From sequence record OP251154.1: a stretch of DNA of 45,171 nucleotides. The stretch is one strand, 5' to 3'. Below are positions 2,009-15,062 of the stretch, piece by piece (the first letter of the stretch is position 1; the number at the start of each line of letters is the position of its first letter). The DNA is from Escherichia phage TR2. Below the pieces are notes generated by a model, which was not told where the DNA came from, did not search any database, and was given only the letters and a program-made list of their open reading frames with translations. A program made the translations under genes and the position numbers.

Positions 2009-2051
2009 ATTATGCCGGATTTCTCCGGCGATTGTTTAGCAATTCGTGCTA
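2009..2051 (-). promoter_or_regulatory. operator/-10 promoter cassette (TAGCA-N5-TGCTA, 22-nt spacer, CATAAT)
   Basis: Plus 2037-2051 TAGCAattcgTGCTA; -10 at plus 2009-2014; leader CATCGACAACACGA then ATG at 1977. Confidence 0.55.
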
Positions 2052-2531
2052 TTGTCCATTCAGGAGTAATTTAGCTTCCCGATAAAACTCCATCGCCGCC
2101 TCAACCTCTTCCTCGCTGTACCGCAAGTGGTATGGTAGTCTACTAGGATGCTTACCTTCGTAGACCTTGAAGTTAGGCTCCCAACACTCATTGAGTATTG
2201 CGGGGTGAACATAAACCTTATCGCCAATTAGACATGTAACATTCATCTTGTCGAGCTCTGGGATTAGCTTGTCCTTGATGAGCAACATCACTCCATTACG
2301 CCCAACAAAAGGCTTAACCTTTCGAGCTCCTTCATATACAGACCTGACACCAACCACTCCTTTCCCGTTAACTCCCATCTTCCTGATGATTTTAATTAGC
2401 ACACCAAGCTCATCACCTGAGTACACATCTGACGTATCAATCGAACCCCAGAATGGCGTTGACTGACGATACCCATTTGCATTTATTACGATTCTGACTG
2501 GCGAAAGTCCATCTTGCCTGGCGATATTCAT
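2049..2531 (-). CDS. internally truncated paralog of the P-loop replication protein at 5132..6715
   Basis: N-terminus (RIVINANGYRQSTPFW) and C-terminal ~70 aa (NGKGVVGVRSVYEGARKVKPF...TCLIGDKVY) match the ends of the 527-aa protein; central Walker-A region absent. Confidence 0.6.
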   Translation of the reverse strand: MNIARQDGLSPVRIVINANGYRQSTPFWGSIDTSDVYSGDELGVLIKIIRKMGVNGKGVVGVRSVYEGARKVKPFVGRNGVMLLIKDKLIPELDKMNVTCLIGDKVYVHPAILNECWEPNFKVYEGKHPSRLPYHLRYSEEEVEAAMEFYREAKLLLNGQ

Positions 2532-5131: not shown

Positions 5132-6715
5132 ATGTTTGATTTCAACGAAGATAAACTATCTGTTGAACAAGTTATGGCGATTGCCGCGACCGACAACCTC
5201 CCACCGCTTCGCGTTGCCATTAATGCAAATGGCTATCGGCAGTCTCAATCATTCTGGAAAACACCTGTGGAGATTGACGCAGGTAATGACAAGTACCCTG
5301 TAATATCTCTAGGCAATGACATTGATGTTGTTGGTAAGCTCTCGGCAAATATTGCTCGCTCAGTTCAGTTCCCAGAGTCATCAGCATACATGCACTTTTT
5401 GGGTTGTGTGTCCGCTGCGATGCTAGGGCGCTTTACTGTTGAGTATCACGGAACCCAGCAGCCAACATCGCTTTACGTGGTAACTAGCCAGCCGCCATCT
5501 ACTGGTAAGTCAGCCATTAACTCTCTGTCAATTGCGCCAATGATTGCTGAGACTGAGCGTTTGAACGAGGTGCGTAAACGTGACCGCAAAAAGATTATGG
5601 CTAAGCTGTCTGCGCTAGCAAAAGAAATGAAACAGGAGAAGTCACCATCTGAGATGGCTTCACTGTTTGAGGAGAAGGAAGATTTAGAGGAAAAGCTCGA
5701 GAAGCTGTGCGATATCGTATTCCCGGTCTCAGATACTACGCCAGAAGGTCTTGCACGAATCAACAACCGCCAGGGTAACTTTGCGGTCATCTCGGATGAG
5801 GCAACAAGCGTCAACTCATTATTGGGCATGACATACGGTGATGGTTCCAAGAAAACGAACAGCGAGCTTGTACTTAAAGCGTGGGATGCTGGTAACGTAT
5901 CTATTGCCCGCGCTAACGCAGAAAACAACATGAGTTTCGTGGCAATGGGGTGCATCTCTGTAATTGCTCAGGATGAAACAATCAATGCGATTATGAATGC
6001 TGGTGCGCGTGGTATTGGTGTTTCCGAGCGTTTCCTTCTGGTGCGTGAAAAGTCATTTCTTGGAGACCGCGTGTTTGTTGATGAGAATGGCGATTCAACA
6101 TACGAGGCTATTGATGATGGTCTTAAAGCAGACTATTTCCGTCTCGTTCATGAAATTATGAATGAAGTTGAAGTGAAACTGACAGTAAGTGCGTCATCCA
6201 TGCGCTACCTTAACCGAGCTCGCCAGGAAATGGAACCGCATCTTGGTGATGGCGGTAAATATTCCCACACGATGTTACGTGGTGCTCTTGGTAAATTTGA
6301 TAAGCAAGCAATCCGTATTGCCTCAGTATTGCACGTTATTCGCAACTGGTTCGCACCGGCAGGGTCGAGTCCGCAGAAATCAAGAGAGATTGAGCTTGAA
6401 ACAATGCAAGAAGCGGTTATGATTTTCCACGAGTTAAGCAAGACTTATTTGTCGTCCGCTAGTGCTGCTGGTCATGCTGGTGATAATGCTGAAATGAATA
6501 AGCTGGTTGATATCCTGATTAAGCAAGGTAAGAATGGGAAGGGTGTTGTTGGCGTTCGCTCACTGTATGAAGCAGCACGCAAAGTTAAACCTTTTGAAGG
6601 ACAGGCTGGCGTAATGACTCGCATCAAGGACCACTTGGTTCCTATGCTTGATGAGAAAAACTATACATGCCTGATTGGTGATAAGATTTACATTAATCCG
6701 CGATTGTTGGGGTGA
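5132..6715 (+). CDS. putative replication initiator/helicase-like P-loop NTPase (527 aa)
   Basis: Walker-A-like TSQPPSTGKSA; has its own promoter cassette; N- and C-terminal segments duplicated in 2049..2531. Confidence 0.6.
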   Translation: MFDFNEDKLSVEQVMAIAATDNLPPLRVAINANGYRQSQSFWKTPVEIDAGNDKYPVISLGNDIDVVGKLSANIARSVQFPESSAYMHFLGCVSAAMLGRFTVEYHGTQQPTSLYVVTSQPPSTGKSAINSLSIAPMIAETERLNEVRKRDRKKIMAKLSALAKEMKQEKSPSEMASLFEEKEDLEEKLEKLCDIVFPVSDTTPEGLARINNRQGNFAVISDEATSVNSLLGMTYGDGSKKTNSELVLKAWDAGNVSIARANAENNMSFVAMGCISVIAQDETINAIMNAGARGIGVSERFLLVREKSFLGDRVFVDENGDSTYEAIDDGLKADYFRLVHEIMNEVEVKLTVSASSMRYLNRARQEMEPHLGDGGKYSHTMLRGALGKFDKQAIRIASVLHVIRNWFAPAGSSPQKSREIELETMQEAVMIFHELSKTYLSSASAAGHAGDNAEMNKLVDILIKQGKNGKGVVGVRSLYEAARKVKPFEGQAGVMTRIKDHLVPMLDEKNYTCLIGDKIYINPRLLG

Positions 6716-7054: not shown

Positions 7055-7082
7055 AAATAGCCCCATTACGGGGCTTTTTTGT
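7053..7082. terminator. bidirectional rho-independent terminator
   Basis: A-run, GCCCC-attac-GGGGC hairpin, T-run; between convergent genes. Confidence 0.7.
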
Positions 7083-8222: not shown

Positions 8223-8250
8223 CACAAAAAAGGGGAGCCAAAAGGCCCCC
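8223..8250 (-). terminator. rho-independent terminator (minus strand)
   Basis: Minus-strand read GGGGGGCC-tttt-GGCTCCCC followed by T7. Confidence 0.55.
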
Positions 8251-8277
8251 CACTTGTAAAACTATGTTTTTGATGTG

Positions 8278-8482: not shown

Positions 8483-8525
8483 ATTATACCTAATTGCTGT
8501 GGCGATTGTTTAGCGATTCGTGCTA
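8483..8525 (-). promoter_or_regulatory. operator/-10 promoter cassette
   Basis: Gene-orientation TAGCAcgaatCGCTA (plus 8511-8525), 22-nt spacer, TATAAT (plus 8483-8488); operator encodes NSTNR-stop of upstream kinase. Confidence 0.55.
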
Positions 8526-9064
8526 TTTATTGCATCAATCACTTTTTCTGTAGTTATTTTAATATCACCTTCAATAACATCAATATCAATTTCCCTTGCG
8601 CAGAGGCCGCTAATGTATGACCTACTATCTCCTTCGAAAGTGTAACCAGGTCTATGAAGCCTAACCAATGTAACCTCAACACCACTTTCAATTAGTGGCT
8701 CAATTTCACTTGCAAATCCACCATCTGAACAGATGTGGCAACCATTGCCAAGAGACTGAGCTAGCCTTTTACCGAAAACTTCATCACCAAAAACTGGCTT
8801 CATCACTGATTCGCTAATCCAAATCATAAATTGACGAACAGTCATTCCACCAAGAAATTCATGTGGTGATTCTTTGTACTCTCGATCATCGTAATTCTTA
8901 ATAAATCCATCAAACTCATCGCTTGATAGCATGCTCTTAGCCACATTAAACATAGGTGATTTGAAAGAAACCTTATCCCTGCAAATTCCAAGTTTAACAA
9001 TGATATCTGCAACTGTATCTTTTCCAGCACCTGGGGGTCCATTAAGGATGATTAACTTTTTCAT
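8510..9064 (-). CDS. deoxynucleoside monophosphate kinase-like P-loop kinase
   Basis: N-terminus MKKLIILNGPPGAGKDT resembles T4 gp1 dNMP kinase; Walker A. Confidence 0.6.
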   Translation of the reverse strand: MKKLIILNGPPGAGKDTVADIIVKLGICRDKVSFKSPMFNVAKSMLSSDEFDGFIKNYDDREYKESPHEFLGGMTVRQFMIWISESVMKPVFGDEVFGKRLAQSLGNGCHICSDGGFASEIEPLIESGVEVTLVRLHRPGYTFEGDSRSYISGLCAREIDIDVIEGDIKITTEKVIDAINSTNR

Positions 9065-9113: not shown

Positions 9114-9662
9114 TTATTTAGAATTCAGATTTTCTACACCATGAGATTTAAGGCCGCTGTGAACATTATAACCATAATCACAAACCTGATAAGTGGTTAT
9201 CCCTAGAGACCTAAAGTGATTTATTACATTCGGGCTATCATCCCAGGCCGCCGTAATTCTTTCAATCCCAATTGAATTTAAGAATTCCTCTTTAATTATC
9301 GTATCCTTCCTGTTGTCCGAAGCTGATCGCATTACCATTACGTTGTATTTGCATCCATTTTTAGTAAGCCAATCAAGTGACTCATCTAGAACATGATCAG
9401 ACCTTCCTGTTAAAATGATTATGTATGCGCCGCTATCATAAATCGAATTCATTACGCTTATCGTATCATTAAATGGAGAATCAAATCTGCTTAGTGAGTT
9501 AAACTCAATCCACGACTCGGTAAGGTGAGGGTCAGTTTTTGGGAGCTTATCAAGTCTGTGAGCCCCGTCAGAAAGCGTTCCGTCATAATCAAAAATATAA
9601 ACTGGCTTACCTTTGAAGTCATTGTTAATTGATTTTTTTATCATTGAATATAGTTGTTTCAT
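9114..9662 (-). CDS. HAD-superfamily phosphatase (nucleotidase or PNK 3'-phosphatase-like)
   Basis: HAD motif I FDYDGTL and downstream ILTGR; co-transcribed with the kinase. Confidence 0.5.
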   Translation of the reverse strand: MKQLYSMIKKSINNDFKGKPVYIFDYDGTLSDGAHRLDKLPKTDPHLTESWIEFNSLSRFDSPFNDTISVMNSIYDSGAYIIILTGRSDHVLDESLDWLTKNGCKYNVMVMRSASDNRKDTIIKEEFLNSIGIERITAAWDDSPNVINHFRSLGITTYQVCDYGYNVHSGLKSHGVENLNSK

Positions 9663-9739: not shown

Positions 9740-10879
9740 TTACATTCCAGGTCGATAGATATGACGACCAACCTCGCCAAACTCTTTGTGATAAACAATC
9801 GCGGCAGCCTGACGATATGAGCGCCACCCCCCTCGTGCTGCATACGCATCCTTGCTTGCTAGTGCTGGATGTACTTCGTCAATACCAAGAGTGCACTCTG
9901 TTACTGTTGCGTGGTGAAAATGCCCGGAATGGCAATAAACGAACTCGCATTCACCAAAGTCTTTCCTGTAATCAGTTGCCATAGCTGCAAGTCTACCTTC
10001 CGCTTTCTTCATTGTGTGACCATGAGTGTAGCCAAGTAGTGTTGAGCCAAATCTTGTCTTGTGCATAATCGCAGGGCTTACATCAACAAAGACACGACTC
10101 TCATTTTCATAAAATGCAGCCATCGCAGCCCGAAGCCAGATCATGCCGCTTTGGTCATGATTTCCCTCGATAATTTGAATGTCAACACTTTTATGCTTTT
10201 TAAGCATCTTTTCTACAGCGCCACGAATTGATCTAATTGCGATGTAGACTAACTTAGCGTAACGGCTATCTTGGTCAAGGCAGTGGCCACTAGCTGGAGT
10301 TACCGCCTCAAGACCATCTGAGTGGAGATAATCACCGCCAACAAGGATGACTGCCTTTTCTGAAGCTGGCGAAACTGATATTGCATGGTCAAAGTATGAG
10401 CCCATTAGTTTTTCTGCCGTTGCCGTGTCATAATTTTCACCAGACTCGTGGCGATGGGCCATCATTCCAATATGTATGTCGAAAATTGGATACAGTGTCA
10501 TTAGGTCAGGGTTTGTATCTTTGCCTGAATGCTTAACTTCCTCACACTTTGGCAACTCAGAACAGAAAGCCTCTCGCGCTTGCTCGAGCATAATTTCAAG
10601 GCGTTCATTATCAACGCTCGTCTTAACCCAGCGCAGCTTCTCATTCCCATCCGCATCAATCATGGTTGAAGTACCCTTGACTAAATAGCCGTCCGGCACT
10701 AACTTCTTGATACCATCATTGCCATGCCCAAACAAACCACTCTTAGCTAACTTACTGCGACGAAGTTCAACGTTGCGAATGTTCATGTCGTACTTCTCCG
10801 CAATCGCCTTGTTAGTCATGCCGTTTTTAAGTTCTTCGATTAGCTGATCGTTGGTAATCTTTGCTACTGTCATTTTCAA
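9740..10879 (-). CDS. calcineurin-like metallophosphoesterase with N-terminal HTH domain
   Basis: Full motif set FDIH, GDYLHSD, GNHD, GYTHGH, GHFHH; N-terminal ~60 aa look like a helix-turn-helix. Confidence 0.65.
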   Translation of the reverse strand: MKMTVAKITNDQLIEELKNGMTNKAIAEKYDMNIRNVELRRSKLAKSGLFGHGNDGIKKLVPDGYLVKGTSTMIDADGNEKLRWVKTSVDNERLEIMLEQAREAFCSELPKCEEVKHSGKDTNPDLMTLYPIFDIHIGMMAHRHESGENYDTATAEKLMGSYFDHAISVSPASEKAVILVGGDYLHSDGLEAVTPASGHCLDQDSRYAKLVYIAIRSIRGAVEKMLKKHKSVDIQIIEGNHDQSGMIWLRAAMAAFYENESRVFVDVSPAIMHKTRFGSTLLGYTHGHTMKKAEGRLAAMATDYRKDFGECEFVYCHSGHFHHATVTECTLGIDEVHPALASKDAYAARGGWRSYRQAAAIVYHKEFGEVGRHIYRPGM

Positions 10880-10954
10880 ATCCTTAGTTCATCACGATAA
10901 AATATAAGATAGTAAAGCTAAACAGTGGTACTAATACTACTAGGGCGGCGTACT

Positions 10955-11206
10955 TCATACAACCTCCTTCAGCCAGTAATCAATTAAATTCGCACTAATT
11001 GCTAATTTCTCGTCCAGGTCAGTCATGCAGAGATTGCCGCACGCTGGCGAGTAATAAATCTGAACCCACTTTCCATCCTTCGTCTTCGCATTAACATCCG
11101 CATAGTCAGGAGGAAACCAATCAGCAATAGGTATCGCCCTAAACTTAGCACCACTACTCCCACTCACCAAATCATAATGCTCAGGCTGAAAATCTAATCC
11201 AAACAT
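10955..11206 (-). CDS. hypothetical protein (83 aa)
   Basis: ORF track. Confidence 0.4.
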   Translation of the reverse strand: MFGLDFQPEHYDLVSGSSGAKFRAIPIADWFPPDYADVNAKTKDGKWVQIYYSPACGNLCMTDLDEKLAISANLIDYWLKEVV

Positions 11207-12032: not shown

Positions 12033-12075
12033 ATAATACACCACTTCATCAATTCGTCTTTAGCAATTCGTGCTA
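12033..12075 (-). promoter_or_regulatory. operator/-10 promoter cassette
   Basis: Plus 12061-12075 TAGCAattcgTGCTA; -10 TATTAT (plus 12033-12038) inside inverted repeat GATGAAGTG/CACTTCATC; leader CATCGAAACGAAA. Confidence 0.55.
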
Positions 12076-14579: not shown

Positions 14580-15062
14580 ATGTGTGAAATCGACAAGCGA
14601 ACTATTAACGGCAATAACGGAACCGTGCGCACAAAAGACAAAAAGCAACGCAAACGACCATCAGGCTACTACGTATTGAAAGATGAGGTAAAGGCTGGGC
14701 TACGTGCTCGCCTGGAGATGGTTCTTGATTTCTACGGTACAAAGGCGAACATCGCAAAGCAGTTAAATGTGTCCAACCAAGCTGTATCGGAATGGTTTAA
14801 CCGCGGTATGATTTCGGCTCGAGGGGCTCAGCGAGCACATAATGCGTACAAGCGAAATAAGGAGGGATTTCGAGCTACATTCTGCCGACCAGACCTGCAA
14901 TTCGACGGAAACGGAAAACCGCTAACACTTCGATGCAAGAAGCGCCATATGCTTCGCGTAGTTACCGATGCAGAACTAGCAACAAAGCCACCCTGTCGAC
15001 CATGGCGAAAGAATAAGGCCGCTAACGAGGCAGCGCGAAAAGCTAAAGAGCAAGGGAAATAG
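14580..15062 (+). CDS. putative HTH DNA-binding protein (Cro/YdaS-like)
   Basis: HTH-like segment KANIAKQLNVSNQAVSEWFNRG; basic C-terminal half; first gene of plus operon. Confidence 0.5.
   Translation: MCEIDKRTINGNNGTVRTKDKKQRKRPSGYYVLKDEVKAGLRARLEMVLDFYGTKANIAKQLNVSNQAVSEWFNRGMISARGAQRAHNAYKRNKEGFRATFCRPDLQFDGNGKPLTLRCKKRHMLRVVTDAELATKPPCRPWRKNKAANEAARKAKEQGK

Follow-up and report, generated by a model that had tools for sequence, protein, structure and literature searches.

The 45,171-nucleotide (nt) stretch of Escherichia phage TR2 analysed here (sequence record OP251154.1; called the window below, at its full length) is essentially the complete genome of a T1-like siphophage (Drexlerviridae, Braunvirinae, Christensenvirus). 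On its minus strand, at 9740–10873, it carries a gene for a protein in which a helix-turn-helix (HTH) domain is fused to a metallophosphoesterase (MPE). We propose, with confidence that is evenly balanced, that this HTH-MPE protein is a stand-alone, DNA-tethered nuclease of early DNA metabolism that most likely aids host chromosome breakdown and nucleotide salvage. The observations behind this reading are the domain architecture, an intact and invariant active site, nuclease-like fold neighbours, the structure of the operon and the phyletic spread of the family. The parts of the proposal differ in strength: judged from its sequence the protein is almost certainly a real, active MPE with an HTH, it probably acts on DNA as a nuclease, and, rather more doubtfully, it may be a main driver of host-chromosome degradation.

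The gene, its domains and its catalytic motifs are listed here, with residues numbered, as throughout unless stated, on the 377-amino-acid (aa) protein that starts at ATG.

10881–10885, minus strand: Shine-Dalgarno sequence AAGGA, 7 nt 5' of the ATG at 10873.
9740–10873, minus strand: HTH-MPE coding sequence, 377 aa, with the stop codon TAA at 9740–9742.
10733–10873, minus strand: N-terminal three-helix HTH domain (residues 1–47), with the putative recognition helix MNIRNVELRRSKLAK.
10559–10702, minus strand: beta-hairpin and helix module (residues 58–105).
9743–10513, minus strand: MPE catalytic domain (residues 121–377).
10466–10486, minus strand: MPE motif I, IFDIHIG, with D132, H134 and G136 invariant.
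10316–10342, minus strand: MPE motif II, VGGDYLHSD, with G180 and D181 invariant and H184 at least 90% conserved.
10262–10300, minus strand: signature TPASGHCLDQDSR between motifs II and III, with D200 invariant and T192, L199, D202 and R204 at least 90% conserved.
10154–10165, minus strand: MPE motif III, GNHD (residues 237–240), with N238 and H239 invariant.
10016–10024, minus strand: MPE motif IV, HGH (residues 284–286), with H284 invariant.
9911–9925, minus strand: MPE motif V/VI, GHFHH (residues 317–321), with G317 and H320 invariant and H318 at least 90% conserved.

Conservation was assessed in an alignment of 72 representatives having 32–58% identity to the window protein. All the ordered motifs of the calcineurin-like MPE superfamily are present, with the seven metal ligands and the catalytic histidine, and 72/72 relatives keep D132, H134, G136, G180, D181, D200, N238, H239, H284, G317 and H320. 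The metal-ligand and catalytic residues are all invariant save H318, which is found in at least 90% of these relatives, and a family-specific stretch between motifs II and III, TPxSGHxLDxDxR, is conserved to at least 90% as well. As far as the alignment can tell, the metal ligands and the catalytic histidine of motif III appear to be under strong purifying selection, which argues for reading the protein as an active enzyme and not as a scaffold. The motif set listed in a preliminary description of this DNA is complete, but two of its details changed: motif II is GD-x-x-H-x-D, not strictly GD-x-x-D, and the GH-x-H said to occur twice consists of one H-G-H and one true G-H-x-H. Motif I (D-x-H-x-G) and the GD-x-x-H of motif II resemble those of Mre11, and a profile alignment to Thermotoga Mre11 is consistent with this resemblance.

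Searches of Pfam, NCBIfam and PDB sequences with the single window sequence returned sub-threshold matches only. Metallophos_2 (PF12850) scored 16.4 bits against a 27-bit cut-off (E 0.009), the gathering cut-off of Metallophos_2/Metallophos (PF00149) was not reached by the window protein, and the NCBIfam match of the single sequence to the ligase-associated nuclease PdeM was weak (E 0.0033). Only 13–15 of the 72 relatives reach the Pfam Metallophos models at E < 0.01. Because the HTH-MPE family, which has neither a curated model nor a Pfam model, is too divergent for the existing Pfam models, its superfamily-level assignment rests on motifs and fold. The classification with hidden Markov models that the preliminary description had proposed was run: it left the Pfam signals of the single sequence below threshold and returned PHROG 704, "DNA repair exonuclease", with E 2.2e-147 and a full-length match (residues 6–379 of the 379-aa maximal reading frame against profile positions 2–388 of 390).

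The members of PHROG 704 include T1 gp16/ST16, TLS gp66, TR1 UVD31753 and JulesPiccard bas03_0050; the window protein is 64% identical to T1 gp16 (ST16) and 99.7% identical to UVD31753, and the local gene order is also that of TR1. Nothing of substance separates the window protein from this PHROG, the position near the lysis cassette being the same too. The HTH-MPE family is a catalogued and widely annotated one, and the window holds a copy near-identical to published phage proteins. Its labels are inconsistent across records (hypothetical, DNA binding protein, oxidoreductase, phosphoesterase, proof-reading exonuclease). A literature search for an exonuclease or DNA-repair activity of PHROG 704 found no experimental paper, and the name "DNA repair exonuclease" is an annotation by remote homology. 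The transposon-mutagenesis, N6-methyl-dAMP (m6-dAMP) and daunorubicin papers make no mention of the HTH-MPE gene. The maximal open reading frame (ORF), 9740–10879 on the minus strand, encodes 379 aa from a TTG at 10877–10879, just one base past the AAGGA Shine-Dalgarno sequence. The true start is probably the ATG at 10873, not this TTG, because of the 7-nt spacing from AAGGA and because the TR1 annotation of the same gene also begins at that ATG and gives 377 aa.

An AlphaFold2 (AF2) model of the protein, built on the 72-sequence alignment, was confident (mean predicted local distance difference test, pLDDT, 91.9; predicted template modelling score, pTM, 0.79). At the N-terminus it has three helices (residues 8–16, 21–27 and 32–45; pLDDT 79–97), followed by a linker at lower confidence (residues 45–60) and by a module made of a hairpin (63–72/78–87) and a helix (89–104). 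The fusion of an HTH to a complete MPE put forward in the preliminary description is borne out by the motifs, by the full-length PHROG 704 match and by this three-helix N-terminus. The HTH, which most members of the family possess, is the most variable portion of the protein. Among the 72 relatives, the Pfam families HTH_8 (13), HTH_1 (10), Sigma70_r4_2 (7) and GerE (3) were recognized, the best scores being 1.5e-9 for Sigma70_r4_2, 2.4e-8 for GerE and 2.6e-5 for HTH_8. The family profile aligned 60 residues to GerE (1fse) at a marginal E 0.05, and the window sequence alone gave weak, sub-threshold matches to GerE (E 0.18) and FixJ (E 0.009). An HTH fold is supported by the AF2 helices, by the matches of the relatives and, marginally, by the family profile, with the choice between a LuxR/GerE and a sigma-70 region 4 subfamily left unfixed. 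A 9-phage alignment shows no variation at S69, W82, V83 and K84 of the hairpin module, and even the Campylobacter phage homologues that are devoid of the HTH keep this module.

The MPE domain is a four-layer alpha/beta-beta/alpha sandwich. In fold comparison its nearest neighbours are nucleases, followed by MJ0936 (13.9), LpxH (13.4) and Rv0805 (12.3), and the PPP protein phosphatases score lower (8.6–8.7). The GDxxDRG and GNHE motifs of the PPP type exemplified by lambda NinI are absent, and its closest fold match is not a PPP enzyme, in agreement with the earlier remark that the GD/GNHD pattern is nearer to phosphodiesterases or nucleases than to PPP. Profile matches in the PDB were weak (SbcD E 0.37, Mre11 E 0.81) and included a 'Nuclease MPE' entry, 6nvo; among predicted viral structures there were 65 matches at E ≤ 0.001, several of them metagenomic phage proteins named 'DNA polymerase II small subunit'. 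The fold margin, which is modest over the non-nuclease MPE proteins, together with the conserved DNA-binding domain, favours a nucleic-acid substrate. Of the three functions that had been suggested for the protein, a DNA-targeted nuclease is the one most in keeping with its nuclease fold neighbours and its conserved DNA-binding domain.

Phages T1 and TLS break down the genome of their host and recycle the nucleotides, and the authors of the 2024 re-annotation of TLS state that they were unable to identify the early gene responsible (PMC11447400). The T1 mutants of Roberts and Drexler (1981), which do not degrade host DNA, are reported to be better at transduction. The other nucleases of the window are a RecE-like exonuclease paired with Erf, a VRR-NUC protein and two HNH enzymes, and HTH-MPE is its sole conserved nuclease-type protein without an assigned role. 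Neither the window's ORFs nor the annotations of T1 and TR1 include a Rad50/SbcC-type ATPase. In the mechanism that we propose, a flexible linker would tether the small N-terminal HTH to an MPE of the Mre11/SbcD/PolD-DP1 type, the HTH and the conserved beta-hairpin module would hold the enzyme on duplex DNA, and a two-metal centre (D132, H134, D181, N238, H284, H318 and H320, with H239 as the catalytic residue) would cut phosphodiester bonds at ends or nicks. Hydrolysis would yield 5'-deoxynucleoside monophosphates (dNMPs), which could enter salvage through the dNMP kinase encoded nearby in the same operon. In T1-like phages the enzyme would in this way contribute to the known breakdown of the host chromosome and shut the host off. 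A second role in processing phage replication or recombination intermediates is possible, comparable to that of T4 gp46/47, which serve both in host DNA breakdown and in the processing of such intermediates.

The operon that contains the gene is made up of the following elements, together with small ORFs.

12033–12075, minus strand: probable operon promoter, with the palindrome TAGCACGAATTGCTA at 12061–12075, a -35-like AAGACG at 12055–12060, a 16-nt spacer and the -10 box TATTAT at 12033–12038; the layout is the same in T1 and Eco_BIFF.
10955–11206, minus strand: 83-aa ORF (phrog_4596) directly 5' of the MPE gene, kept in T1 (ST17) and Eco_BIFF, with 34% identity.
9114–9662, minus strand: HAD phosphatase downstream of the MPE gene (Pfam HAD_PNKP, 1.7e-16; phrog_415).
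8510–9064, minus strand: P-loop kinase further downstream, in the deoxynucleoside monophosphate kinase family phrog_139 (E 2.1e-44).
8232–8251, minus strand: strong intrinsic terminator GGGGGGCCTTTTGGCTCCCC with a T run, which ends the operon ahead of the holin gene.

The order is promoter, five small ORFs, MPE, HAD phosphatase, dNMP kinase, a small ORF annotated in TR1, and terminator. Because the operon runs from the promoter at about 12033–12075 to the terminator at 8232–8251, before the holin gene, the HTH-MPE gene belongs to an early-type DNA/nucleotide-metabolism operon and not to the adjoining lysis cassette. The corresponding gene of T1, gp16, has the same promoter type and the ST17 homologue upstream and an annotated terminator after it, and the same promoter class heads pnk, the helicase gene and other early or DNA-metabolism genes of that phage. 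Persistence of the gene next to the lysis cassette has been reported in 508/522 Drexlerviridae (PMC13164509). A functional link to lysis was considered and rejected: the adjacency is recurrent, but a terminator precedes the holin gene here and another lies 3' of the gene in T1, and we see in the adjacency no more than a boundary effect of how the genome is laid out. The holin, endolysin and spanin genes form a cassette that the terminator at 8232–8251 cuts off from the nucleotide-metabolism operon, and a bidirectional terminator hairpin is found at 7059–7075. Two neighbours are better described by other names than those annotated, the 'polynucleotide kinase' (9114–9662) being a HAD phosphatase and the 'ATPase' (8510–9064) a dNMP-kinase homologue. 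The family phrog_415 also contains the T5 dNMP phosphatase Dmp, whose pairwise similarity to the HAD protein of the window is weak.

The promoter of this operon is one of several of its kind in the window. The TAGCA-N5-TGCTA operator of the preliminary description is real, with 7 exact copies against 0.07 expected, and its distribution was compared with that of a regulator gene.

2037, 3656, 4466, 12061, 19353, 22305 and 23431: start positions of the palindrome copies, 15 nt each.
14580–15062, plus strand: Cro/MerR-like regulator (160 aa, phrog_2856), 55% identical to T1 ST23.

Six of the seven palindromes abut a -35-like hexamer (mostly AAGACA), which a 16-nt spacer separates from a TATnAT -10 box; in several of these promoters a conserved CATCGAAACGAAA comes after the -10 box; by their layout the sites would form a family of early promoters. 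The palindrome occurs 10 times in T1 and 8 times in Eco_BIFF, and K1ind1 has none. In phage TLS the repeat has been described as a 21-nt element at 21 sites (PMC11447400). The phrog_2856 regulator was found in 824 phage records, which correspond by genus and host to enterobacterial Drexlerviridae groups plus 20 Campylobacter records, and its HTH (VSNQxV) is conserved between the window and T1. On this correlative evidence the palindrome is more likely to be bound by the 14580–15062 regulator than by the MPE. As a separate observation, a 160-aa ORF at 2049–2531 (minus strand) corresponds to the C-terminal portion of a 'DNA helicase' family, phrog_2373, of which the window has a member in the 527-aa ORF at 5132–6715 (plus strand); the shorter ORF may be a partial duplicate or a domain paralogue.

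The family reaches far beyond T1-like phages. It was found by tblastn in 2,015 phage records, and an exhaustive HMMER search gave 4,649 clusters (50% identity) at E ≤ 0.001, temperate prophages included, and 1,061 at E ≤ 1e-30. In Kagunavirus K1ind1 the MPE, HAD and kinase genes form an opposite-strand insert within the tail genes (45, 49 and 50% identical to those of the window), Jerseyvirus LSPA1 has the MPE in the tail-gene position without the HAD and kinase genes, and in Guernseyvirinae the MPE gene lies on the opposite strand amid tail genes, in a moron-like position. Its other positions are behind endolysin or spanin genes (in several prophages, Rhodobacter phage RcWhiteOak and Vibrio phage K217), ahead of terminase genes (Jedunavirus and some beta-proteobacterial prophages) and directly downstream of a DNA ligase gene (Campylobacter phage CPX). 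A bacterial genome scan with a five-sequence alignment as query gave 30 loci, many of them in megabase contigs of alpha- and beta-proteobacteria; these loci belong to prophages that also carry genes for TerS, TerL, portal, tail fibre and RusA. Integrated temperate elements of E. coli, with an integrase and a LexA-family repressor, carry a full-length HTH-MPE homologue of 53% identity. In three of them (L042, 8734–9852 in NZ_CM144251.1; L043; L044) it stands between a Lin1244/Lin1753 initiator-like gene and a DnaB-type helicase gene that starts 19 nt downstream of the MPE stop codon, a position where the helicase loader usually sits.

All-against-all clustering of the neighbours at 27 bacterial loci revealed no conserved partner gene, and an obligate partner was rejected. 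The small upstream ORFs differ by lineage: Drexlerviridae have phrog_4596, beta-proteobacterial prophages a Cys-rich ORF and Guernseyvirinae a membrane protein. The HTH-MPE gene moves between phages whose replisomes are unrelated, and its expression is usually joined to that of early or DNA-metabolism genes; the unrelated replication systems and the lack of a conserved partner argue for an autonomous DNA activity and not for a replisome subunit. The Cys-rich ORF of the beta-proteobacterial prophages (70–97 aa, CxxC...CRRxPP...WCGxW) abuts or overlaps the MPE start and may be a lineage-specific partner. It was located at these positions.

L027, 7580–7873: Cys-rich ORF.
L039, 7612–7875: Cys-rich ORF.
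L033, 7675–7893: Cys-rich ORF.
L040, 7730–7945: Cys-rich ORF.
L024, 7595–7810: Cys-rich ORF.

Three sequences of T1-type appearance are filed as bacteria or plasmid: L013 as Nitratidesulfovibrio liaohensis, L012 as a Bacillota metagenome-assembled genome and CP124687 as a plasmid of Paraclostridium bifermentans. The appearance is judged from MPE identities that among them are 90%, 61% and 64%, and from the lengths of two of the records, 46.7 and 49.6 kb (CP124687 being that of 49.6 kb); contamination by phage or mis-binning is the probable cause. The small ORF upstream of the MPE in L013 shares 91% identity with that of the window, against only 61% for the MPE, which indicates a mosaic junction.

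Among characterized systems, a parallel to the proposed function is the T5 protein A1, a predicted metallo-phosphatase that is necessary and sufficient for host DNA degradation in vivo (bioRxiv 10.64898/2026.04.02.716235). Like the window protein, A1 has an N-terminal helical domain of DNA-binding type and a C-terminal MPE domain; both are early genes, both phage groups degrade host DNA, and the authors of the A1 work report the same kinds of fold neighbour, namely double-strand-break repair nucleases and polymerase proofreading subunits. Moreover, Dmp is encoded two small ORFs from A1 in T5, and a HAD protein of the same PHROG adjoins the MPE in the window. The differences are that A1 is 556 aa long and, going by the AF2 model of a T5 A1-like protein (pLDDT 88.6), has a further beta-rich domain of some 200 aa, that its motifs II and III are HD and SNHD variants, unlike those of the window protein, and that A1 is also required for second-step DNA transfer, whereas T1-like phages have no such step. 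Sequence similarity of the window protein to Mre11/SbcD and T4 gp47 is not significant (E 0.37 for SbcD). Unlike these proteins it has no capping domain after the MPE core and no Rad50/SbcC/gp46 partner in its phage, and it possesses an N-terminal HTH and a hairpin module that they lack. The PolD small subunit DP1 (a 3'-5' proofreading exonuclease, PDB 5ihe) shares only 12% identity with it; DP2 is absent from the window phage and, unlike the PolD system, T1-like phages encode no DNA polymerase. A second precedent for a phage MPE that destroys host DNA is gp48 of the cluster A mycobacteriophage A10ZJ24, which has phosphodiesterase activity, causes damage to the genomic DNA of the host early in infection and proves toxic on expression (PMC12287305). 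Its reported role is the silencing of host defence genes in M. tuberculosis, and it appears to be without an N-terminal HTH, judging from the D10G change in a conserved motif, which places the start of its catalytic motifs near the N-terminus.

Several points weigh against a nuclease dedicated to host chromosome breakdown. Homologues with 53% identity occur in the early operons of the integrated temperate E. coli elements, directly upstream of the replicative helicase, and further ones in alpha- and beta-proteobacterial prophages; an indiscriminate chromosome destroyer would be awkward because of these homologues in temperate elements, and a role in replication or recombination fits equally. 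The adjacency of the HAD phosphatase and dNMP kinase is not kept in T1, where the pair lies about 35 kb from the MPE. Nor does bulk DNA degradation obviously call for an HTH that looks sequence-specific. Orthology with T5 A1 was also considered and rejected, which leaves that system as an analogy only (BLASTP E 0.25; hhalign probability 19.5% at full length and 39% when the MPE domains are compared). In hhalign the motifs of the two proteins became colinear only when the alignment was forced to extend, Foldseek from the T5 A1-like model reached a member of the HTH-MPE family only at E 0.054, and A1 matches phrog_1745 only. HTH-MPE and A1 belong to distinct MPE lineages whose layout is convergent, having only the architecture and the MPE core in common. 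More tentatively still, HTH-MPE could be the demolition enzyme of the host chromosome that has long been looked for in T1-like phages, convergent with T5 A1, its HTH helping to target or discriminate DNA.

An Mre11- or DP1-like nuclease that works on the phage genome and not on the host chromosome, trimming ends, flaps or primers in DNA intermediates of the phage, is unlikely in our judgement. In its favour is synteny with replication genes in several unrelated groups: the window has the gene order helicase, VRR-NUC and then MPE, Jedunavirus BUCT_47333 has helicase, primase and then MPE, a Brevundimonas prophage has a primase gene upstream, and in the three E. coli elements described above the gene is wedged between the initiator-like and the helicase genes; PHROG and genome annotators use the labels 'DNA repair' or 'proof-reading' exonuclease. 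Against this, the family spans differing replisomes (phages that use the host Pol III, phages with their own PolA and T4-like Campylobacter phages) and is also found outside replication modules, on the opposite strand amid the tail genes of Guernseyvirinae and after endolysin or spanin genes. It comes with no conserved partner at the 27 loci and no Rad50/SbcC or DP2, and T1-like phages already have a RecE-like exonuclease and Erf for recombination. Such a role is compatible with the proposed host-degrading nuclease, because T4 gp46/47 does both jobs. The gene neighbours suggest another activity, an end-healing cassette of MPE, HAD phosphatase and P-loop kinase like T4 Pnkp or the bacterial Pnkp with its MPE phosphatase domain, which would act against host nucleases whose cleavage produces 2',3'-cyclic phosphate or 3'-phosphate ends. 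The HAD_PNKP match of the neighbour at 9114–9662 with the kinase next to it, the trio kept together in K1ind1, the CPX homologue directly 3' of a DNA ligase gene, an ATP-dependent ligase gene 3 kb downstream in a Phenylobacterium prophage and the weak PdeM match all point this way. We nevertheless regard it as improbable: the kinase falls in the dNMP-kinase PHROG 139 and not with polynucleotide kinases, the HAD protein shares its PHROG with Dmp, the pair is remote from the MPE in T1, most family members have no HAD, kinase or ligase neighbours, and a DNA-binding HTH is a poor fit to tRNA repair.

The palindromic promoters raise the question of a transcription factor, possibly a bifunctional one, that would bind TAGCA-N5-TGCTA through a LuxR- or sigma-region-4-like HTH, as in the earlier suggestion that the protein is the regulator of the promoter regulon. 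The palindrome is strongly enriched, one copy heads the MPE operon, and it abuts a -35-like hexamer, a placement typical of class II activators such as those of the LuxR type. In addition, the HTH resembles GerE and Sigma70_r4, and no binder of the repeat has been named (PMC11447400). We find this very improbable, and the suggestion was not supported, since K1ind1 has an MPE of 45% identity without the palindrome, the Cro/MerR-like regulator at 14580–15062 has the same distribution as the palindrome whereas the MPE family is far wider, and helix 3 of the MPE differs between the window and T1 (NIRNVELRRSKL against HIRTVEARHAKL) though the DNA site is the same. Some MPE homologues have no HTH at all, and a purely regulatory role leaves the invariant active site unexplained. 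Most improbable of all is an anti-defence enzyme, a phosphodiesterase with small-molecule substrates such as the cyclic (oligo)nucleotides of immune signalling or other nucleotides, which had been suggested as well and likewise found no backing. Phages are known to encode signal-degrading phosphodiesterases, and the moron-like position of the Guernseyvirinae gene would suit such a function. The conserved DNA-binding domain and the nuclease character of the nearest folds speak against it, as does the status of the gene as a core one, present in 508/522 Drexlerviridae and co-transcribed with DNA-metabolism genes, anti-defence genes being usually accessory; PADLOC detected no similarity of HTH-MPE to its models of known defence and counter-defence proteins.

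If the protein were a generic repair or recombination nuclease only, the finding would be an ordinary one. If instead it is the proposed DNA-tethered nuclease of host chromosome breakdown, thousands of clusters from siphophages, Campylobacter myophages and prophages would constitute a second, independently evolved lineage of DNA-tethered MPE demolition nucleases. T1-like phages are classic models and notorious laboratory contaminants, and which enzyme degrades the host DNA in them is a question that dates from 1981 and was restated in 2024. The present analysis points to one conserved nuclease-type gene as a candidate and separates that gene from the T5 A1 family. Characterizing one member would re-annotate thousands of phage and prophage genes that are at present inconsistently labelled.

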